From the IMG/VR virus record IMGVR_UViG_3300025874_000005, positions 1-64,000 of that record: a stretch of 64,000 nucleotides of DNA; one strand, written 5' to 3'. Source of the stretch: a virus. This document shows, piece by piece, positions 3,503 through 25,916 of this stretch (position 1 is its first letter; the number at the start of each line of letters is the position of its first letter). Both the position numbers and the translations under genes were made by a program. The notes under the pieces are model-generated. The model saw nothing but the letters and a program-made list of their open reading frames with translations. It did no database searches and was not told where the DNA came from.

Positions 3503-4579
3503 ATGGCTAGAAAGAAAAAATCACTATCGGAGGCAGTCTCCTCAGAAATACAGGCAAATTTTAACTTAGATGGGTTTAAATCTAAAAAAGGTTTAACATC
3601 CAAAGCTAAATTTAAGGATCAAGAATGGATTCCTCTATCACCAGCATACCAGGAAATAACGTCAGTACCTGGTATTCCTATGGGTCATATAGTTTTACTT
3701 AGAGGTCATTCTGACACTGGAAAAACTACAGCTCTATTAGAAACAGCAGTTGAAGCTCAAAAACGTAAAGTACTTCCGGTTTTTATCATTACAGAGATGA
3801 AATGGAATTGGGAGCATGCTATACAGATGGGTTTAAAAGTTAATGAAGTTGTTGATGAAGAAACAGGTGAAATAACTGATTATAATGGTAATTTTATTTA
3901 TGTAGACAGAGAAACTATCCATTCAATTGAAGATGTTTCTGGATTTATTCTTGATTTAATTGATGAGCAGAAAAATGGTAACTTACCTTATGATTTACTA
4001 TTTCTTTGGGATTCAATTGGTTCAGTACCATGTGAAATGTCTATTAAATCTAATAAAAATAATAATGAGTGGAATGCTGGAGCAATGTCAACACAGTTTG
4101 GAAATAGTGTAAACCAACGCATTACATTATCTCGTAAAGAATCATCTCCATATACTAATACTTTAGTTTGTATTAATAAAGTATGGACAGCAAAAGCAGA
4201 ATCACCAATGGGTAAACCAAAACTTATGAATAAAGGTGGATTTGCTATGTGGTTTGATTCAACATTTGTTGTAACCTTTGGTAATATTATGAATGCTGGA
4301 ACTTCTAAAATAAAAGCTATTAAAGGAGGAAAACAAGTAGAATTTGCTAAACGTGTAAATGTTCAGGTTGATAAAAACCACATTAATGGTATGACAACAA
4401 GAGGAAAACTTGTAATGACACCTCATGGGTTTATTTTGGATAATGATAAAGATTTGAAGAAATATAAAGAAGACCATGCAGAAGAATGGGCTGCTATATT
4501 AGGTGGAAGTGATTTCAAGATCGCAGAAGAAGATCAAGAATATCATGATATAACATCTCACACAGACGAGCCACAATAA
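3503..4579 (+). CDS. uvsX: RecA/UvsX-like recombinase
   Basis: Walker A GHSDTGKT, Walker B FLWDS, NKGG, DKNH. Confidence 0.85.
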   Translation: MARKKKSLSEAVSSEIQANFNLDGFKSKKGLTSKAKFKDQEWIPLSPAYQEITSVPGIPMGHIVLLRGHSDTGKTTALLETAVEAQKRKVLPVFIITEMKWNWEHAIQMGLKVNEVVDEETGEITDYNGNFIYVDRETIHSIEDVSGFILDLIDEQKNGNLPYDLLFLWDSIGSVPCEMSIKSNKNNNEWNAGAMSTQFGNSVNQRITLSRKESSPYTNTLVCINKVWTAKAESPMGKPKLMNKGGFAMWFDSTFVVTFGNIMNAGTSKIKAIKGGKQVEFAKRVNVQVDKNHINGMTTRGKLVMTPHGFILDNDKDLKKYKEDHAEEWAAILGGSDFKIAEEDQEYHDITSHTDEPQ

Positions 4580-4581
4580 AC

Positions 4582-4618
4582 TTTGATACCCGGGATATCT
4601 TTCGTATATTCCGGGTAT
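4582..4618 (+). promoter_or_regulatory. promoter embedded in a 13-bp inverted repeat
   Basis: TTTGA...TTCGTATATT (TATATT 4605-4610); arms ATACCCGGGATAT 4586-4598 / ATATTCCGGGTAT 4606-4618. Confidence 0.6.
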
Positions 4619-4632
4619 ATAAAAAAATCACA

Positions 4633-10419: not shown

Positions 10420-11622
10420 ATGAAAAAACTAATATTTATTGCTTTATTATTAATAGGAACCCAATCCCAAGCTCAGGGTTTATTAGATTCATTTTATCAA
10501 GACTTCCTAAAATATGGTACTATATATGGAGCTGGAGAAGTAAGAAATTCCATTGAGGCATCAGAACCAACATATTTTTTAAGAACTAACCCAGATGGCA
10601 GTCTTTATTCTATTCCTGATGTAGTAGATAATACTCCTATTTATCCATTTGATTATAGATTAGGATTTGGTATAAGAAAATTAGCTAGATTTAATTATGA
10701 AAGAAAACCTAAAAATTACTATGATGGTACTGAAGAACAATTAGTGTTTGGTGCCCCCACATCTGCAGTTACAGGTTTAGAATATCAATTTCATTTTGAA
10801 AAAGAAAGATGGAGAGGTGAAAATTTTACAAATTATAACTTTTTTATAAAACACACAGGAAAATATCATATTGTAAAAGTTCAATCTAGAGAAGTAGGTA
10901 AAATAAATTTAAATTTTAACTCTGCTGAAGTAAGAGGTAGATTACCAATTGGTGAAAAATTTAGTATATCAGCAGGTGCTATTTTAAGAGGACATGAAAG
11001 AGCATATGGTTATAATCCAGTAGAAATATGGTTAAATGAAACACAAATAATAGGTGGTCAAGAATACCCAGTTAATTATTGGTATGAGTTAGGCTATCAA
11101 TATGGTTATCAAGATGTTTTTTATACACAAACAAGTACTGATCCTAATACTGGAGAAGAAATAACAACCCAAGATTGGTGTTGGATTGATTCAAATGGTG
11201 CTGAAGTAGCTCATTCAGATTTAGATTTTAGAGAAACAATAATGCCTGGATTAATGAATCGTTTTAATGGTGAAGCTTGGGATTTATTAGATCCTTGGAT
11301 GGAAGTAGCTCCAATAGTAGGTATAGATTTTTATCATTATAAAAGAGATTTTTGGTTACATGCCTATGCAAATTATATTCTTCCATATCACAAATATATT
11401 GCTGGAGAAGAAGAATTTAGTTATCTTAATAGAAACAATTGGGGTAAAGGTGGATTAATACAAGACTCAGAACTAGAACAATGGAATGATTATTCAGCAG
11501 GAATTAGTTTTGGTTATAAATTTGGAAAAAACTTAGGAATTTTTGCAGAAGGTGAATTTTCAAAAATGTGGGATAGTAGATTATATCAAACTAGTTTTGG
11601 AATAAATTATACATTTAAGTAA
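10420..11622 (+). CDS. predicted outer-membrane beta-barrel protein
   Basis: Sec signal MKKLIFIALLLIGTQSQA; alternating aromatic strands; C-terminal FGINYTFK BAM-like signal. Confidence 0.65.
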   Translation: MKKLIFIALLLIGTQSQAQGLLDSFYQDFLKYGTIYGAGEVRNSIEASEPTYFLRTNPDGSLYSIPDVVDNTPIYPFDYRLGFGIRKLARFNYERKPKNYYDGTEEQLVFGAPTSAVTGLEYQFHFEKERWRGENFTNYNFFIKHTGKYHIVKVQSREVGKINLNFNSAEVRGRLPIGEKFSISAGAILRGHERAYGYNPVEIWLNETQIIGGQEYPVNYWYELGYQYGYQDVFYTQTSTDPNTGEEITTQDWCWIDSNGAEVAHSDLDFRETIMPGLMNRFNGEAWDLLDPWMEVAPIVGIDFYHYKRDFWLHAYANYILPYHKYIAGEEEFSYLNRNNWGKGGLIQDSELEQWNDYSAGISFGYKFGKNLGIFAEGEFSKMWDSRLYQTSFGINYTFK

Positions 11623-15633: not shown

Positions 15634-15652
15634 GCTTAATCTATATAGTAGA

Positions 15653-15680
15653 GAAAGGCGCCTTAATTGGCGCCTTTTTT
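15653..15680 (+). terminator. intrinsic terminator
   Basis: GAAAGGCGCC-TTAATT-GGCGCCTTTTTT. Confidence 0.9.
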
Positions 15681-15697
15681 CTTTCTATGCGAAAAAA

Positions 15698-15752
15698 TTT
15701 GGAGAAGCGGAAGAGGGTTCGTATATTTACGTATAAATAAGGGCGTTAAGCC
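15698..15752 (+). promoter_or_regulatory. early promoter + leader stem-loop cassette
   Basis: TTGGAGAAGC 15699, TATATT 15722-15727, then GGC-GTTAA-GCC. Confidence 0.75.
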
Positions 15753-15774
15753 AAGTATAAATTAAATAAAAGTT

Positions 15775-17778: not shown

Positions 17779-17779
17779 A

Positions 17780-17959
17780 ATGATAGAATTTTTTAAACAT
17801 GCTTTAGGATTATGTGGTGAACATTGGCACCCAAACATTTTTACAATTATCTTAGGTGGGCTTGGATTATCCGCTCCATTTTCGTATATTAAATACAAAT
17901 TAAACAGTTATGGCAATAAAAATAAGTCACGAAACACCCCTATGTCTATTAAACGATAG
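17780..17959 (+). CDS. 59-aa membrane microprotein (not in track)
   Basis: MIEFFKHALGLCGEHWHPNIFTIILGGLGL...; ATG 1 nt after the thyX stop. Confidence 0.5.
   Translation: MIEFFKHALGLCGEHWHPNIFTIILGGLGLSAPFSYIKYKLNSYGNKNKSRNTPMSIKR
17861..17892 (+). promoter_or_regulatory. sigma70-type promoter for the dpdA-like gene
   Basis: TTGG 17862-17865, N19, TATATT 17885-17890. Confidence 0.7.
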
Positions 17960-18701
17960 TAGACGATTTAATGATTATGACTATTGTCTTCCCCATTTAT
18001 TGGATGAAGAACCAGGTTATTTAGAATATTTTTTAGAATCTAAAAGACAAGGTCGTTATATTATAATGGATAATTCTCTTCATGAATTAGGCGAAGCCTA
18101 TAACCATGAACGTCTTGTATATTGGGTTAATGAATTAGAACCTAATGAATTTATAGTACCAGATGTTTGGGAAAATTGTGTAGAATCTATTCAAAATGCT
18201 GAAATATGGAATATTTATGATTTTCCTGAAGGAGTTGAGAAAGTTGCTGTAGTTCAAGCAAAAACAATTCATGAAGCTTCACAATGTGTTAAAGCTTATA
18301 AAAATTTAGGTTACGGTAAAATTTGTTTTTCATATGGGGCTTCTTATTATAATGATGTTTGTCCTCACCCAAATAAGGATTTAGGTAAAGCTTTAGGAAG
18401 ACTTTATGTAATTTCAGCTTTAATGAAAATGGGAGATATTAAACAAGATGATAGAATTCATTTATTAGGATGTGCTGTACCCCAAGAGTTTGGGTGGTAT
18501 GAAGGTATTAATTGCATAGAATCAATTGATACATCAAACCCAGTTATGGCGACATTAGAAGATGTTCAATATAGAAATTATGGTTTATATCAAAAACCAA
18601 AAGCAAATATGAATGATTATTTTTATATGTTAAATGATCAAGTTGATTATGATCTTTTAACTTACAATTTAGATGTGTTTAAAATGATAAATAATTTATA
18701 A
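17910..18701 (+). CDS. dpdA: DpdA-like (TGT-fold) deazaguanine DNA transglycosylase
   Basis: IMDNS, VPDV, VVQ, IHLLG, SIDTS motifs of TGT/DpdA; context with queCDE and folE. Confidence 0.7.
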   Translation: MAIKISHETPLCLLNDSRRFNDYDYCLPHLLDEEPGYLEYFLESKRQGRYIIMDNSLHELGEAYNHERLVYWVNELEPNEFIVPDVWENCVESIQNAEIWNIYDFPEGVEKVAVVQAKTIHEASQCVKAYKNLGYGKICFSYGASYYNDVCPHPNKDLGKALGRLYVISALMKMGDIKQDDRIHLLGCAVPQEFGWYEGINCIESIDTSNPVMATLEDVQYRNYGLYQKPKANMNDYFYMLNDQVDYDLLTYNLDVFKMINNL

Positions 18702-18702
18702 A

Positions 18703-18897
18703 ATGGCAAAACTAACAAGAAATGTAAATTACGCAAATTACAGATGGGAAGAATATGTGTTAACCGAAGAAGAATTAACACAGTGGAAAACGGGTGATGA
18801 AGATATCCAACAAGAGATTATAGATAATGCAGATTGGGATCTAGTAAGAGATAAACCAATTGATGATTACAGTGAACCAGAATTTATAGAAGAATAA
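18703..18897 (+). CDS. small acidic hypothetical protein
   Basis: Tightly packed ORF. Confidence 0.65.
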   Translation: MAKLTRNVNYANYRWEEYVLTEEELTQWKTGDEDIQQEIIDNADWDLVRDKPIDDYSEPEFIEE

Positions 18898-18901
18898 AGA
18901 T

Positions 18902-19126
18902 ATGTTAAAAAAACAATCAATAAGGTCTAATCAGACCATTTTTATCAATAATAATGATAAATCAGCAAGTAAAGATGAAATTCTAGCACTTAGTGAATTT
19001 TGGACTGATAGAGAAGAAGGATTATTTCGAAAACTTCTTAAACAAGGTGGAAGTACAAAAATACAAGGTACTCATTTTAAAGTGGTTGTTGAAGAAAAAC
19101 AACTTAAATTACGTGACATGCAATAG
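18902..19126 (+). CDS. hypothetical protein
   Basis: Tightly packed ORF. Confidence 0.65.
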   Translation: MLKKQSIRSNQTIFINNNDKSASKDEILALSEFWTDREEGLFRKLLKQGGSTKIQGTHFKVVVEEKQLKLRDMQ

Positions 19127-19158
19127 CGTTTGCCTATACGCTTAAAATACCTGGCAAA
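19125..19158 (+). ncRNA. candidate cis-regulatory H-type pseudoknot (riboswitch-like) upstream of queC
   Basis: S1 AGCGT 19125-29 / ACGCT 19138-42; S2 TTGCC 19130-34 / GGCAA 19153-57; A-rich linker. Confidence 0.45.
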
Positions 19159-19173
19159 TATAAATAAATAAAA

Positions 19174-20046
19174 ATGACACAATTGGAATTAAATTTTAAG
19201 GACTCACGACGTCCGAAACACGCAGTAGTATCACTTTCAGGTGGTATGGATTCAAGTACATTATTGCTTAAATGTCTTGATAAATTTGAAACAGTAACAG
19301 CTTTATCCTTTGACTATGGTCAAAAACATAAGGTTGAACTAAAAAGAGCAAGAGCATTAGTTGATTATTTAAATAGACAATGTACTGACAATAATTGTTA
19401 TGGTGGTTGTAGAATTAAATATCAGGTTATTAAATTAGATGGATTAGTTGATTTACTAGATTCAGCATTAGTTGAAGGTGGTGAAGAAGTACCAGAAGGG
19501 CATTACGCAGCTGAAAATATGAAAGCTACTGTAGTACCTAATAGAAATAAAATATTTGCTTCTATAACTCAGGCAGTTGCTTTATCAGTAGCAAATAGAA
19601 CAGAAGAAGGAACATCAATTGCTTTAGGAATTCATGCCGGGGATCATGATATTTACCCTGATTGTAGACAAGAATTTAGAGATGCTGATGATCATGCTTT
19701 TAGAGAAGGTAATTGGGATGCTGAAAGAGTAGGTTATTATACTCCTTATCTTAAAGGTGATAAATTTACTATTCTTCAAGATGGAGAAGTATTATGTGAA
19801 AAATTAGGTATTGATTTTGATGAAGTTTATGCTAGAACAAACACTTCATATAAACCAACACCTGAAGGGTGGTCTGATTACAAATCAGCATCATCTGTAG
19901 AACGTATTGAAGCGTTCATTAAATTAGGAAGACCTGATCCAGTACAATATGCCGATGAAACAGGTCCTGTTGATTATGAAACGGCAAGAATATATGTTGA
20001 ACAAGTTCTTTCAGAATACGAAAAAGAACAATTAAAAATTAAATAA
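19174..20046 (+). CDS. queC: 7-cyano-7-deazaguanine synthase
   Basis: SLSGGMDS PP-loop, FDYGQKH, VPNRN, YPDCR. Confidence 0.93.
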   Translation: MTQLELNFKDSRRPKHAVVSLSGGMDSSTLLLKCLDKFETVTALSFDYGQKHKVELKRARALVDYLNRQCTDNNCYGGCRIKYQVIKLDGLVDLLDSALVEGGEEVPEGHYAAENMKATVVPNRNKIFASITQAVALSVANRTEEGTSIALGIHAGDHDIYPDCRQEFRDADDHAFREGNWDAERVGYYTPYLKGDKFTILQDGEVLCEKLGIDFDEVYARTNTSYKPTPEGWSDYKSASSVERIEAFIKLGRPDPVQYADETGPVDYETARIYVEQVLSEYEKEQLKIK

Positions 20047-20047
20047 A

Positions 20048-20269
20048 ATGGAAAATAAAGAATTAAATAAAGAAGTAGATAAAATAGTTAACCAATTAGC
20101 AGGTGCTAATATAAAAGAATTACCTGATGCTTACATGCACCAAAAAATCAGTTTTATTAAATCTGGTGTAAGAATTTTAGGTTATTGTTTTATCCCATTT
20201 AGCTTGGGTTGGGCAACTGCTTTTCTTATATTGAGTGAAGTAATAGGTATAATCGAAGAATTAGTATAA
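20048..20269 (+). CDS. small membrane protein
   Basis: C-terminal hydrophobic segments. Confidence 0.65.
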   Translation: MENKELNKEVDKIVNQLAGANIKELPDAYMHQKISFIKSGVRILGYCFIPFSLGWATAFLILSEVIGIIEELV

Positions 20270-20285
20270 ATTAAATAAATAAAAA

Positions 20286-20543
20286 ATGAATAGAGGAATT
20301 TTGTATTTCAGCGCACCATGGTGCGGACCTTGTAAAGTAATGTCTCCTTTGATGGAACAAATGGAAAAACAAGGAAAAATTAAGATGAAAAAAATTAATG
20401 TTGATTATGATGCTTCAATGCCTCAAAAATATAACATTAAAAGTGTACCTACTATGGTCTTAACAGATTTAGATGGTAATGAAATTAAAAGAACAACAGG
20501 AAATATGTCTGAGGTTCAAATAATGGAGTTTTACAATGGGTAA
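20286..20543 (+). CDS. trxA: thioredoxin
   Basis: WCGPC, SVPT. Confidence 0.92.
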   Translation: MNRGILYFSAPWCGPCKVMSPLMEQMEKQGKIKMKKINVDYDASMPQKYNIKSVPTMVLTDLDGNEIKRTTGNMSEVQIMEFYNG

Positions 20544-21000
20544 ATTTTCATCAAGTAAAGTATTTGACGGGTTTAGTACAGTGTTTCGTCAATGGAAAGC
20601 TGAAGATACACATTGTAGATTTTTACATGGATATGGTATTAGTTTCAAAGTATATTTTGAAGGTGATTTAGATGATAGAAACTGGGTTTGGGATTTTGGT
20701 GGTATGAAGCGTGCTAAAACCCAAATTGAGGGTAAATCACCTAAGGAATGGATGGATTATATGTTTGACCATACTGTTATCATTGCAGAAGATGACCCAG
20801 GTATGAAAGGTTGGGAAACTATGAATCAACTAGGAGTAATTCAATTAAGAGTAATTGAAGCTACAGGTGCAGAAAAATTTGCAGAATATATTTATAATAA
20901 GCTCAATGATTTTGTATTTGAAGAAACAGATAATAGAGTTAGAGTAACAAAAGTTAAATTTATGGAGCATGGAAAAAATGCTGCATATTATAGTGAATAA
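20536..21000 (+). CDS. queD: 6-carboxy-5,6,7,8-tetrahydropterin synthase
   Basis: HCRFLHGY, DFG, FDH, AE. Confidence 0.9.
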   Translation: MGKFSSSKVFDGFSTVFRQWKAEDTHCRFLHGYGISFKVYFEGDLDDRNWVWDFGGMKRAKTQIEGKSPKEWMDYMFDHTVIIAEDDPGMKGWETMNQLGVIQLRVIEATGAEKFAEYIYNKLNDFVFEETDNRVRVTKVKFMEHGKNAAYYSE

Positions 21001-21021
21001 AAAACCACTTAAAAAAATTGT

Positions 21022-21798
21022 ATGTTAAAAAGAATAGAAGATTATAATAAAAATCTACCTGTTGTAGAAATTTATACAGCAGTTCAGTCAGAAGGATCAA
21101 GAGCAGGTTACCCAACAGTAGTTATTAGAACAACAGGTTGTACTCATCGATGTTATTTTGGAGAAGGTGGTTGGTGTGACTCTTGGTATACTAGTATTCA
21201 TCCTGAAAAAGGACATTTTAATTTCAAAGACATTATTGAAATGTATGAGAAAAATCCTCATATAAAAGAAATGATGTTAACTGGAGGCTCACCTACTATG
21301 CATCCTGCTTTGGTAAATGAATTAACACATTTTGCACATGAAAATGATATTTTTATTACTATCGAAACTGAGGGATCTCATTTCCTCCCCACAGACTATC
21401 CTATTAATTTATTATCTATTAGCCCTAAGTTTAGTAATTCTGTACCAGTTGTAGGTGTTTTAACTCCCCAAGGTAAAGAAACGGATGAAAAAATGATTAA
21501 AACTCATAATAGGCTTAGACTTAATTATGATGCAATGAAACAATCAATTGAATATCATTCTGATTATCATATCAAACCAGTATGGGACGGTAAGGATGAA
21601 GGAGCATTAGCTGAGATTATGGAATGTATTAAAACATTAGAAGTACCTCAACATAAAGTATGGTTTATGCCTGCTGGAGATTCAAGAGAAGCATTATTTA
21701 AGTCATACCCAGTATTATTTGATTGGGTTAGGGACAATGGTTATAGAATGACATGGAGACCTCACATTATTGCCTTTGAAGACAAAAGAGAAGTATAA
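21022..21798 (+). CDS. queE: 7-carboxy-7-deazaguanine synthase (radical SAM)
   Basis: QSEG, GCTHRC..WCDS, LTGG, IETEG, SISPK. Confidence 0.92.
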   Translation: MLKRIEDYNKNLPVVEIYTAVQSEGSRAGYPTVVIRTTGCTHRCYFGEGGWCDSWYTSIHPEKGHFNFKDIIEMYEKNPHIKEMMLTGGSPTMHPALVNELTHFAHENDIFITIETEGSHFLPTDYPINLLSISPKFSNSVPVVGVLTPQGKETDEKMIKTHNRLRLNYDAMKQSIEYHSDYHIKPVWDGKDEGALAEIMECIKTLEVPQHKVWFMPAGDSREALFKSYPVLFDWVRDNGYRMTWRPHIIAFEDKREV

Positions 21799-21932
21799 TG
21801 TCTAAAGAAGAAGCACTTGAAATACTGGAAGAAATATCAGAAAATGTTAGTGTTTGTTGTGCTATAACAATGGAACCAGATGAAGTTTTACTATTAATAG
21901 ATAAATTAAAGAAATACTTAGAAAATGTATAA
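21798..21932 (+). CDS. 44-aa hypothetical (not in track)
   Basis: MSKEEALEILEEISENVSVCC...; TAATG coupling. Confidence 0.55.
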   Translation: MSKEEALEILEEISENVSVCCAITMEPDEVLLLIDKLKKYLENV

Positions 21933-22263
21933 ATACAATGCAAAATTAGATAGAGTTGTTGATGGAGATACTGTTGATGCCCTTGTAGATTTAGGATTTA
22001 ATACTTGGAAAAAAGTAAGAATTAGAATGGTAGGGATGAATGCCCCAGAGTCAAGAACTAGAGATTTAGAAGAAAAAGCAAGAGGAATTGCTGCTAAAAT
22101 TAGATTAGAAGAATTACTAGAAAAAGGATCATTTATTTTAGAATCTCAAGGTGTAGGTAAATACGGTAGATGTTTAGGAATTATATTTGTTAATGAAGTA
22201 AATGTAAATAAACAATTAATAACTGAAGGACATGCTGTAGAGTATAATGGAGGGAAAAGATAA
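21925..22263 (+). CDS. thermonuclease (SNase-like)
   Basis: RVVDGDT, GMNAPE, GKYGR. Confidence 0.85.
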   Translation: MYKYNAKLDRVVDGDTVDALVDLGFNTWKKVRIRMVGMNAPESRTRDLEEKARGIAAKIRLEELLEKGSFILESQGVGKYGRCLGIIFVNEVNVNKQLITEGHAVEYNGGKR

Positions 22264-22264
22264 A

Positions 22265-22651
22265 ATGCATTATATAACCCAACACCCAATTAAAAAATCA
22301 GATTTAGGATTCCATGGAAATTTATTTGGAGGAAAATTACTAGCTTGGTTAGATGCAGCAGCTGCTTCTTATGCTTCTGAGTTTTGTGATACCCCACGAA
22401 TGGTAACTAAGAGTATAGATAAATGCATTTTTAATAAACCTGCTAAAGAAGGTCAGTTATTAAAAATATATGGTGATGTAAAAAAAATTGGAACTACTTC
22501 TTTAACATTATATATGGAAGCACGTTCACATAATGTTTATAATGGAAAGCAAAATGTTATTTTAGCAACAAATATTACATTTGTTAGAATAGATGAAATG
22601 GGAGATGCTATCCCAATATCAGATAGAGTTAAATCAAAATTAAAAATATGA
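22265..22651 (+). CDS. hotdog-fold acyl-CoA thioesterase
   Basis: HGNLFGGKLLAWLD, GTTS, TFVRID. Confidence 0.85.
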   Translation: MHYITQHPIKKSDLGFHGNLFGGKLLAWLDAAAASYASEFCDTPRMVTKSIDKCIFNKPAKEGQLLKIYGDVKKIGTTSLTLYMEARSHNVYNGKQNVILATNITFVRIDEMGDAIPISDRVKSKLKI

Positions 22652-23151
22652 ATCAATTAATTAGTGCTAAAGATATAGATATCCAAACAAAAATAGTTGC
22701 AAAACAAATATCAGATGAACATAAAGGTGATAAAACTCCTGTAGTAATGGTTGGGTTACTTAATGGTTGTTTTGCGTTTTATGCTGATTTAGTACGGGCT
22801 ATGCCAATTGATGTGGAATGTGATTTTATGCGCGTTAAATCGTATATAAATCGTAAACAAGGCGATATAGTTATTGCTAAAGACCTTGAGACTCCTATTA
22901 AAGGTAAGCATGTTTATATTGTAGATGACATTTATGACACTGGAAATACTATGAAAGTTGTTATTGATTATTTAAATGTTAAAAAACCAGCTTCTATTTC
23001 AATTGTAAGTTTAGTTACTAGAAAATCATCCCCAACACCTCCAGTTAAAATGTTTAATGCTTTTAAGATTGATAATGAGTGGTTAGTTGGATTTGGGATG
23101 GATAATGAAAAAGGTTATTTAAGAAATTTACCTGCTATTTATTCTCTATAA
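22648..23151 (+). CDS. hpt: hypoxanthine/guanine phosphoribosyltransferase
   Basis: GLLNG, KSY, IVDDIYDTGNT, VGFGMD, RNLP. Confidence 0.9.
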   Translation: MNQLISAKDIDIQTKIVAKQISDEHKGDKTPVVMVGLLNGCFAFYADLVRAMPIDVECDFMRVKSYINRKQGDIVIAKDLETPIKGKHVYIVDDIYDTGNTMKVVIDYLNVKKPASISIVSLVTRKSSPTPPVKMFNAFKIDNEWLVGFGMDNEKGYLRNLPAIYSL

Positions 23152-23159
23152 TATTTATA
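23151..23159 (+). promoter_or_regulatory. putative late promoter motif ATATTTATA
   Basis: Upstream of a virion-like gene. Confidence 0.5.
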
Positions 23160-23169
23160 ATAAAATACT

Positions 23170-24642
23170 ATGGGAAGACCTCTTAAACACGCTACATCAA
23201 AACCTGCAAGATCTATGAGGCAGGGGAATATTGCTGCTCGAGTAGGAAAAGGAAATATTGGCCCTACATCTGCAACAGGATATTATAATGCAATTGAACC
23301 TACAGAAATTGGTAAGTATGTAGTTTATAAAATGTTAGGAGCTTCCCAAGCACCTTTATCTTTTACTCCTCAAAATGATAATGAATTTTTAAGATTAGCT
23401 AATCAAGAAGGAGCAGGAGTTTCTGATGTCACATCAGCTTTAGAATGGTTTGCTACGCAAAATAATTTTACAGTAGCAGCAATAATTAATTCTACAGGAA
23501 GCTTGAACGTTGATCCTTTTTGTATTTTTGATGCATTAGGTAATAACCCATCACCTCAAGGCAAATGGTTTAATTCAGTTGCTCCTTTAGATAATATGAA
23601 TGTAGATAATAGAGAGCATGCTTTATCTGAAATTGTATGTATGGAAAATACTACTGCTTATTGGGGTGCCCCCTATACTGGTACTATTATTTATGAAATA
23701 AATGGAAGTAGTATTACTACAAAGGTATCAGCTACATCAGCCCCTTCTAATGGCTCATTTGCAGCTATTGCTGGTCGTCGCTATGTAGGTAATAAACCAA
23801 TATCAATTAAAGGTGTAAGTAATGGTCATGCTTTTTGTCCTATTTCTTATTATGGTAAAGAGTGGGGGTATTACTATTCTAGATATCAACCCCCAATAGT
23901 ATTTTTCTATTGTCTTAAAGATAATACATCTATACAAATTTTTGTAGCTAATTCCTCATCAAGTGGTGGTAGAACCGGAATGGCGAATACTACATTACTT
24001 ACAACTATTACTGGAAATGAAAATGATGTAGTAAATTATACATTTCCATCCTCACCAGATTATAGAAATTATTATATTACAATTAAATCAAATGAGCCTG
24101 TAGTAATGACTGCTAGAGGCACCTTAGGAGATAAATCAATTGGAGCTTTAGCAGGTGAGTATAATTATAGAAGAAGAAATGCATATGAAGCAACTGCTGA
24201 AAATACATCACCTTCTACTCAAGCTACTAATGTAGTTTATGATAATTCTTATAATTCTTGGGCATTATCTATTGCAGATGGTTCAGGTGGGGATAATGAA
24301 GTAAGTATGCCTTTAGATATGTTAACTAAAAATTATACTTTTGGAGAACGTTTAAATTCTTATTATATTGTAAGTCCTTATGCTAGTAATAATATTACAA
24401 TTTCTTCTTGGAATGGTGGTAGTTGGGAAATATTCTCAACTCACACAGTTAATGGAACAATAACTAGCCCTGCTTTTGCTGAAAGTGGATCACAAAGTGG
24501 TGGTGGGGGTAATTTTAATGGTAACAGATTATGGAAGTTTACAGGTGATGATCCCTTTTACATTGTTGTTAACGATAATGGTAGAGATGAAGAAATGTTA
24601 TTAGGATGGAATACCGGAGAAGTAGATACATTTTTTATGTAA
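23170..24642 (+). CDS. putative virion/adhesin-like beta-rich protein
   Basis: S/T/G/N/Y-rich 490 aa; late motif upstream. Confidence 0.5.
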   Translation: MGRPLKHATSKPARSMRQGNIAARVGKGNIGPTSATGYYNAIEPTEIGKYVVYKMLGASQAPLSFTPQNDNEFLRLANQEGAGVSDVTSALEWFATQNNFTVAAIINSTGSLNVDPFCIFDALGNNPSPQGKWFNSVAPLDNMNVDNREHALSEIVCMENTTAYWGAPYTGTIIYEINGSSITTKVSATSAPSNGSFAAIAGRRYVGNKPISIKGVSNGHAFCPISYYGKEWGYYYSRYQPPIVFFYCLKDNTSIQIFVANSSSSGGRTGMANTTLLTTITGNENDVVNYTFPSSPDYRNYYITIKSNEPVVMTARGTLGDKSIGALAGEYNYRRRNAYEATAENTSPSTQATNVVYDNSYNSWALSIADGSGGDNEVSMPLDMLTKNYTFGERLNSYYIVSPYASNNITISSWNGGSWEIFSTHTVNGTITSPAFAESGSQSGGGGNFNGNRLWKFTGDDPFYIVVNDNGRDEEMLLGWNTGEVDTFFM

Positions 24643-24656
24643 AAATTTATATTTAG

Positions 24657-24688
24657 TTTGGAGTTAACCAAACATATTCGTATATTAA
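24657..24688 (+). promoter_or_regulatory. sigma70-type promoter for folE
   Basis: TTGG 24658-61, N19, TATATT 24681-86. Confidence 0.7.
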
Positions 24689-24709
24689 ATCAAATAAAAA
24701 GTTATATTA

Positions 24710-25405
24710 ATGGAAAACAAACGAAGAAAAATTCACGAAGAATTAGAAGTAGTACAAACAGGTTTTGCAAATGGAGTTGCTGAAGGATTTCCCCTAGAAC
24801 AATCTGAAAAAGATAAAATGATTGATGAAGCAGAAGTAGCTTATGGTCAATTTTTAGATGCTTTAAAATGTGATTGGAGAAATGATCCAAACTCAATGGA
24901 AACCCCAAGACGTGTAGCTAAAGCATATGTAAATGATTTATGGGCAGGTAGATATACTGCAATGTCTCCTATTACATCATTTCCTTCTGATGGTTATGAT
25001 GGAATTATTATTGAAAGAAATATTCCTTTAACATCAATGTGTTCACACCACCACCAAACAATTGGGGGGGTAGTTCATATTGGTTACATAGCAGGAGAAG
25101 GTGGTCAAGTAATTGGTTTAAGTAAACTAAATAGAATCGTTGAGTTATTTGGTCGTAGAGGAGCTATCCAAGAACAATTAACATCAGCTATTCATAATGC
25201 AGTATGTAAAATTACTGAAGGTAATAAAGGTGTTATTGTTACTATTGTTGGTACTCATAATTGTGTGAGTTGTAGAGGTGTAAAACACCAAGGAGCAGCT
25301 ATGGTTACAACCAAAGCATCAGGAGTATTTAGAGATAATGATAATTTAGCAAGGAAAGAATTTTTTGACAGTCTGAAGATTAACAACGGAGGACATAATA
25401 TTTAA
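24710..25405 (+). CDS. folE: GTP cyclohydrolase I
   Basis: ETPRRV, SMCSHH, GLSKL.R, IQE, HNCVSCRG. Confidence 0.95.
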   Translation: MENKRRKIHEELEVVQTGFANGVAEGFPLEQSEKDKMIDEAEVAYGQFLDALKCDWRNDPNSMETPRRVAKAYVNDLWAGRYTAMSPITSFPSDGYDGIIIERNIPLTSMCSHHHQTIGGVVHIGYIAGEGGQVIGLSKLNRIVELFGRRGAIQEQLTSAIHNAVCKITEGNKGVIVTIVGTHNCVSCRGVKHQGAAMVTTKASGVFRDNDNLARKEFFDSLKINNGGHNI

Positions 25406-25418
25406 AATAATAATAGTT

Positions 25419-25916
25419 ATGAGTAAAAGTAATGTACCATTTGTAAATGAAGTAGAGGAATTTAATTCCACTATGGGTAAACCAAACAATTATGAACCTA
25501 CAATCCCTGAAAAAAAGGAGTGGCAATTTGTTTATGATTTCATCCTCGAAGAACTCGAGGAATATAAACATGCTTGTGAAACAGGAGATATTGTTGAGAT
25601 TCTTGATGCTTTATGTGATATTGCCTACGTTTCGTTGGGTAATGGAACTATGCTACATGGTCTTAAGGATAAGATATGGCCAGCATATCAAGAAGTACAA
25701 GGGTCGAATATGTCAAAGGCTTGCTCAAGCGAAGAGGATGCACAAGCGACCGTGGAGCTTAGATCAAAAGAGCAAGAGGAACCATGTCACTATGAGAAGG
25801 TTGGAAAATATTATATTGTCTATAGAACACGTGATAGAAAAGTGATGAAAAATATTAATTACTACCGCCCGGACCTTAAACAATTCTTTACTAAGGAAGA
25901 AATTAAAAATTCATAA
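25419..25916 (+). CDS. MazG-like/all-alpha NTP pyrophosphohydrolase
   Basis: EELEEY, DALCD, SNMSK, KVMK. Confidence 0.85.
   Translation: MSKSNVPFVNEVEEFNSTMGKPNNYEPTIPEKKEWQFVYDFILEELEEYKHACETGDIVEILDALCDIAYVSLGNGTMLHGLKDKIWPAYQEVQGSNMSKACSSEEDAQATVELRSKEQEEPCHYEKVGKYYIVYRTRDRKVMKNINYYRPDLKQFFTKEEIKNS

Follow-up and report, generated by a model that had tools for sequence, protein, structure and literature searches.

A conserved pseudoknot family upstream of phage queC resembles preQ1-I riboswitches and probably tunes a DNA-modification precursor

The window analyzed here, a 64,000-nt stretch of DNA, belongs to a 164-kb phage genome rated complete. Its plus strand carries a gene for a DpdA3-like DNA guanine transglycosylase (17910..18701; 37% to the immuto and Campylobacter phage enzymes), followed in the same putative operon by queC, encoding preQ0 synthase (19174..20046). 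Farther downstream on this strand lie queD (PTPS; 20536..21000), whose leader lacks the motif described below, a gene for a queE-like radical SAM protein (21022..21798) in synteny with immuto, and folE (GTP cyclohydrolase I; 24710..25405), which has its own promoter-like site. QueF, ArcS and a formyltransferase were not found in this complete-rated genome, which encodes a DpdA3-type enzyme, FolE, QueD, QueE and QueC. The pathway region (17910-25916) adjoins genes for a phosphoribosyltransferase, a thioesterase and an NTP pyrophosphohydrolase. Assignment of 19174..20046 as queC, made in a preliminary description from the sequence, agreed with its Pfam match (PF06508, E 1.6e-36). This QueC aligns with solved QueC structures only at residues 15-177, and the usual C-terminal cysteine cluster was not visible on inspection. 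A promoter-like motif (TTGG, ~17 nt, TTCGTATATT) recurs across the genome, e.g. at 4580-4632, 15634-15774, 17779-17909 and 24643-24709, and a second motif, TATTTATA, precedes structural genes.

Directly upstream of queC, a 47-nt gap separates it from a 74-aa ORF and carries an H-type pseudoknot of 31 nt on the plus strand (19125-19155), with a 5-bp P1 and a 3-bp P2. The P1 5' strand (19125..19129) ends in the U of an invariant U-A top pair, and its first bases overlap the stop codon of the 74-aa ORF (19124-26). Loop 1 (19130..19131) consists of two variable nucleotides. It is followed by the P2 5' strand GCC (19132..19134), whose final C forms an invariant C-G pair at the junction. This pair was present in 117 of 117 distinct cores and was not imposed by the parse. 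Loop 2 (UAU, 19135..19137) is AU or U in relatives, always with the terminal U, and leads into the P1 3' strand (19138..19142). Loop 3 (19143..19152) comprises a variable A-rich stretch, a conserved AYAC (19147-50) and CU. The P2 3' strand GGC (19153..19155) then gives way to an A/U-rich translation initiation region of 18 nt without a Shine-Dalgarno (SD) sequence (19156..19173).

The preliminary description had located P1 at 19125-29/19138-42, UUGCC at 19130-34, GGCAA at 19153-57 and the ATG at 19174, all correctly. It had also proposed a 5-bp P2 ending 16 nt before the ATG, which needs revision. Positions 19130-31 vary freely among relatives (UU, UA, AA, UC, CC) without compensation and so belong to loop 1, leaving as conserved P2 the pairing of GCC with GGC, which ends 18 nt before the ATG. 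A longer pairing of loop-2 UAU with loop-3 AUA was rejected, as it is lost in variants.

When the gap was dinucleotide-shuffled 5000 times, a 5+5 bp pseudoknot with this geometry appeared once, and the plus strand of the 164-kb genome has a single occurrence. Nearest-neighbor folding of the gap, which cannot model pseudoknots, was not significant (z -1.2 to -1.35), so the main evidence for the element is its conservation. The window form is marginally stable, with P1 alone at about -4.3 kcal/mol and a P2 of 3 bp.

The pseudoknot precedes queC in hundreds of phage contigs, including that of the cultured Flavobacterium phage immuto_2-6A. Upstream genes differ among relatives, while the element stays with queC. 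For a motif census we selected 202 distinct queC leaders by protein only. These comprised 105 leaders with the exact short core, 5 with a single change at the P2 end, 29 with longer forms and 63 with none. The motif is thus dispensable, given these 63 leaders without it. Of 314 viral queC leaders, 250 yielded a strong pseudoknot in a parse that used geometry alone. The element's register was found in 233 of the 314, and the remainder showed the same motif in alternative registers.

Both helices showed the substitutions expected of paired RNA. Pairing held in 99% of P1 cells, and double changes there numbered 37, where shuffles gave 7.8. Mapped onto the QueC tree, P1 changed state 17 times or more, a count that recombination may inflate. 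Several lineages have exchanged P2 wholly for other complementary strands while keeping the junction. In the long forms, eight pairs across both helices had double changes (23 cells vs 5.5). G-U wobbles were consistent with the plus strand only, which identifies the selected molecule as the mRNA. The fixed core consists of the U-A pair at the top of P1, the final U of loop 2, the first C-G pair of P2 and AYAC in loop 3; all pairs outside it covary. Around these ~9 nt, P1 ranges from 4 to 8 bp and P2 from 3 to 7 bp, a wide variation that would suit a small pocket. The preliminary description had named orthologous queC leaders as the test of the element, and there it recurred with covariation in both helices. 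Taken together, these comparisons show that selection maintains an H-type pseudoknot in the mRNA, with an invariant core at the junction and a set distance to the queC start downstream, and make the queC-leader pseudoknot well supported as a real cis-acting RNA family. A conserved unpaired core within covarying helices, in cis to one metabolic gene, is also the general form of a riboswitch.

Some loci depart from the usual arrangement. The dpdA3 reading frame traverses the motif at seven loci (L016, L017, L421, L447, L473, L479 and L487), where P2 is extended to 5 bp and the outermost pair of P1 shows covariation at synonymous sites of that frame. On one contig (L170), a short form (10606-10637) precedes a degraded queC start, and another variant (10996-11030) precedes the intact queC. 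Another (L745) bears a tandem pair of short-form motifs before queC, upstream of position 1501.

Association with queC was nearly exclusive. A sequence-free parse found the core in 230 of 313 queC leaders, compared to 1 of 1200 unrelated leaders. It was absent from all 645 leaders of other pathway genes (0 of 180 queD, 146 queE, 67 folE, 45 queF, 191 dpdA and 16 yhhQ). Among 120 strict matches in metagenomes, 116 preceded queC and the other four lay on truncated or chimeric contigs. A near-identical copy of the window region joined to bacterial genes rather than queC (L650:3560-3830) probably reflects a chimeric contig. A motif-like pseudoknot 31 nt before an unrelated gene (L405, minus strand, ~345 on the reverse complement) is likely a chance match, as the scan pattern imposed P2. 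The motif was single-copy in five long genomes, and no relocated copy was found in motif-less phages. Its single copy, unlike the repeated promoter motif, and the freedom of its stem sequence to change led us to reject a role as promoter or DNA operator. A ToxI-like antitoxin mimic and an HDV-like ribozyme were likewise rejected, since the element is single-copy and tied to the start, lacks an extra hairpin and has no Rfam match.

In one phage (L087:138-982), the motif was retained though a distant homologue has replaced queC immediately after the start; this QueC is only 46% identical and falls outside the clade (AU p 0.007). Complete genomes carrying the motif include some with QueF and some without. 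Other Immutovirus-like phages carry long forms, as do T4-like phages that use SD sequences, and one SD-using phage has the order queF - motif - queC - yhhQ, the last encoding a Vut_1 transporter (L769:478-2914). Searches for bacterial copies by strict scans gave chance matches, two phage-like MAG contigs and one unassigned 1.9-kb contig. With the short-form model, 151 genomes from the family of one Flavobacteriaceae MAG scored at most 26 bits, against at least 51 for true members, and none of 54 bacterial or archaeal queC leaders had the core.

In four T4-like, SD-using phages (L803, L814, L833 and L871) with a long queC motif, queE is also preceded by a preQ1-I-like pseudoknot, distinct from the queC element. 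This second knot has a loop that pairs with the SD, a canonical-looking loop 3 and no Rfam match (L871, ~3975-4012, plus strand). From these features, the queE-leader pseudoknot is a candidate second phage riboswitch variant.

The position of the queC element relative to the start codon is also constrained. The spacer from the end of P2 to the queC AUG measured 17-25 nt in 208 of 217 short-form instances, and at two loci where the spacer became shorter, another in-frame ATG has arisen at 20-21 nt. In SD-using phages the distance from the end of the knot to the SD is mostly 3-8 nt. Of the 217 instances, 62 have a promoter-like site immediately upstream of the element, which is a 5' leader there. 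In the window genome it would instead be intercistronic, since the nearest upstream promoter-like motif copy (approximately 17860..17895, plus strand) precedes the dpdA3-like gene. No terminator-like site was found downstream of the element; together with the promoter position, this points to translational control within the operon. In 66 of 139 leaders, an upstream stop codon lay no more than 3 nt from where P1 begins, and terminating ribosomes may melt the pseudoknot where the stop adjoins P1.

The preliminary description had judged that the element is not a canonical preQ1-I riboswitch, and we concur. Rfam scans of the window gave nothing at gathering score, and RF00522 did not match the element even at E 10. 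A minus-strand SAM-V match (E 5.6) was dismissed as chance, with G-U wobbles supporting the plus strand only. The element also fails on the G5-C floor and on the specificity cytosine. Long forms come closer. The best scored 27.2 bits with RF00522 (E 4e-4 in 111 nt) exactly at the motif, where gathering is 39 bits, and a second gave a sub-threshold 20.3 bits, again exactly at the motif. The phage family resembles preQ1-I and fails membership.

Structures of preQ1-I have a G5-C18 floor, a C17 that reads the ligand, and U6, U7, A30 and C31 lining one or two stacked sites (PMC8752633). A specificity cytosine at the end of loop 2 is a feature of the class (PMC8752633, PMC10622847). In the long forms, As stand in place of the specificity C and pair with the bases equivalent to U6 and U7. 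As the lower of these U-A pairs covaries, it is a true base pair and closes the old preQ1-I site. The fixed bases of the phage family sit one level above. We infer from these alignments that preQ1-I is the ancestor of the family, whose pocket was then rebuilt; small A-rich pseudoknots could also have converged on this likeness.

Overall, the element is probably a phage riboswitch variant sensing either preQ0 (as an OFF switch) or its precursor in the QueC reaction, CDG (as an ON switch). The reading we favor, held at close to an even chance, is a preQ1-I-derived riboswitch with a rebuilt pocket that would sense preQ0 and turn OFF, tuning queC translation by product feedback. P1 would fold alone, weakly, and P2 would dock stably only on binding a 7-deazaguanine, most likely preQ0, the product of QueC. 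A weak P1 and a 3-bp P2 make such a stabilizing partner plausible. The ligand would sit between the U-A floor and the C-G ceiling. This pocket is a model, since the canonical preQ1 contacts are absent. In preQ1-I the O6 of the G5 floor disfavors the nitrile of preQ0 (PMC10622847), and the phage family has U-A where preQ1-I has G5. Occurrence of the motif both with and without QueF, along with its exclusive link to queC, would favor preQ0 or CDG over preQ1, with the proviso that a host QueF could supply preQ1.

Once formed, the compact knot at the 5' edge of the 30S footprint would lower initiation sterically, without pairing to SD or AUG, and preQ0 supply would be matched to its use in DNA by DpdA3. 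The short form has no conserved expression-platform helix over the start and no predicted pairing between motif and initiation region; in the absence of a conserved alternative helix, steric OFF control is the simplest model. Initiation in Flavobacterium prefers low structure from -20 to +20 and uses no SD (PMC6847099), and a preQ1-I aptamer represses by its bulk at 24 nt from the AUG but not at 29 nt (PMC10018353). A reading that covers either ligand, which we put at a little below even, is a new phage-specific class built on the preQ1-I scaffold, selective for CDG or preQ0 over preQ1, that would meter the precursor used to replace guanine across the whole genome and, in Bacteroidota hosts, act without pairing to an SD.

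The strongest rival is an ON riboswitch for CDG, the QueC substrate, in which ligand-driven P2 formation would free the initiation region so that QueC is made only on substrate build-up. We consider it unlikely, if a real contender. The queC-only link suits a substrate sensor, and T4-like phages have the different, SD-sequestering queE leader, such that the queC element may read another signal. In SD-using relatives, the P2 3' strand is pyrimidine-rich and can pair with the SD/AUG 3-8 nt downstream, and such anti-SD hairpins would point to ON rather than OFF. However, those available to SD-type long forms are weak (0 to -4.8 kcal/mol), and pairing of the P2 3' strand with SD/AUG (mean 0.52, against 0.21 for the reverse complement) hardly differed from the value for a shuffled P2 strand (0.49). 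For the short form, the type present in the window, no such pairing is predicted. Anti-AUG and SGG-codon pairings were unsupported, and pairing to the coding region was not enriched.

A protein-bound operator, at which QueC or another phage protein would bind the pseudoknot and repress queC translation as gp32 does in T4, appears quite unlikely. It would explain a single copy always followed by one gene and co-inherited with one QueC subfamily. T4 gene 32 sets a precedent, as both it and the element combine a phage 5' pseudoknot with an unstructured A/U-rich leader that can overlap an upstream ORF (PMC535899), here in the lineage whose dpdA3 frame runs through the motif. The T4 leader exceeds 40 nt for cooperative filling by gp32 and its sequence diverges between phages, whereas the element has fixed loops, a spacer of ~20 nt and an enzyme gene downstream. 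Moreover, the motif was retained before the 46%-identical QueC from outside the clade, and QueC keeps ~68% identity across large differences in the length and sequence of the helices. The likeness to a ligand-binding scaffold also speaks against an operator, and our literature search found no report of QueC autoregulation, which the preliminary description had offered as an alternative.

At least as doubtful is a constitutively folded preQ1-I relic whose own U-A pairs plug the ligand sites, and which would position the start, enhance translation or stabilize mRNA in SD-poor messages. The As that pair with the U6/U7 positions of long forms in place of the specificity C fit such plugging. The second in-frame ATG gained in the two short-spacer loci suggests that the ribosome needs the knot outside its footprint. 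Yet a generic enhancer would be expected before many genes, while the element is single-copy and queC-only. The marginal stability of the window form also weighs against a constitutive fold, and a binding partner is suggested by the invariant unpaired bases. That the element recodes or couples the upstream ORF (stop read-through, frameshift or reinitiation) is highly improbable: upstream stops do overlap or adjoin P1 in the window and in the 66 leaders noted above, but upstream genes are unrelated between phages, 62 of 217 instances have a promoter-like site close upstream, and spacing is fixed relative to the downstream AUG, not the stop.

Our literature search found no description of the queC-leader family, with the qualification that an unnamed entry is possible in a catalogue of 10,000 viral structured-RNA motifs (PMC10690425), and no report of a riboswitch controlling DNA hypermodification. 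The family seems to be an as yet uncatalogued branch of the preQ1-I riboswitches, carried by aquatic phages whose DNA guanine is replaced with 7-deazaguanines, where it probably tunes the DNA-modification precursor. A sensor specific to preQ0 or CDG would, if so, add a new pairing of RNA and ligand and give a natural case of riboswitch specificity changed by filling the old pocket. The SD-less form would provide a test case for riboswitch control of translation in Bacteroidota, whose ribosomes ignore the SD. Direct tests are feasible with an RNA of 31-45 nt and a cultured carrier. In that carrier, Flavobacterium phage immuto_2-6A, guanines are fully replaced by fdPreQ1.

Among known systems, preQ1-I (RF00522; C. 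antarcticum, B. subtilis queC, T. tengcongensis and E. coli yhhQ; types I-III) is the closest. Members share an H-type pseudoknot of ~30-45 nt with an A-rich loop 3, and the element has the same ~5-bp P1, short P2 and A-rich loop 3. The long forms further share the Rfam P1 consensus, the UU after P1 and the loop-3 pattern. Both families lie upstream of queuosine-pathway genes, the phage family of queC only, with a yhhQ transporter gene also downstream in one phage group.

The differences concern the pocket, the expression platform and the range. Where preQ1-I has a G5-C floor at the top of P1, the phage family has U-A throughout, and the long-form G-C lies two pairs lower. The specificity cytosine (C15/C17) at the end of loop 2 is replaced by a U (alignments A1, A3); when long forms are set in the preQ1-I register, its position is an A pairing into the pocket. 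The phage family has an extra fixed AYAC, which preQ1-I lacks. The preQ1-I expression platform is an SD inside P2 or a terminator, whereas in the window the queC leader has no SD and no terminator-like site follows the motif, and SD-using phage relatives carry the SD 3-8 nt outside P2. Unlike preQ1-I, the phage family comes so far from phage sequences only. Of the other classes, preQ1-II and preQ1-III contain inserted hairpins that the phage element lacks, and the element has no Rfam match to them. They resemble it in having a single loop-2 U at the helix junction.

Riboswitches have been called rare in phages, and the Melnitz glutamine riboswitches are likewise riboswitch-type elements on a marine phage (PMC9004378). 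Those match a catalogued bacterial family, while the queC element has no above-threshold match to any catalogued family, and the searches above turned up no copy in bacteria. For the proposed mode of control, the closest precedent is the C. antarcticum preQ1-I uncoupled from its SD, in which a compact pseudoknot 15-24 nt from the start represses without SD pairing (PMC10018353). That spacing was engineered in E. coli, whereas the phage spacing is natural and extends to SD-less hosts.
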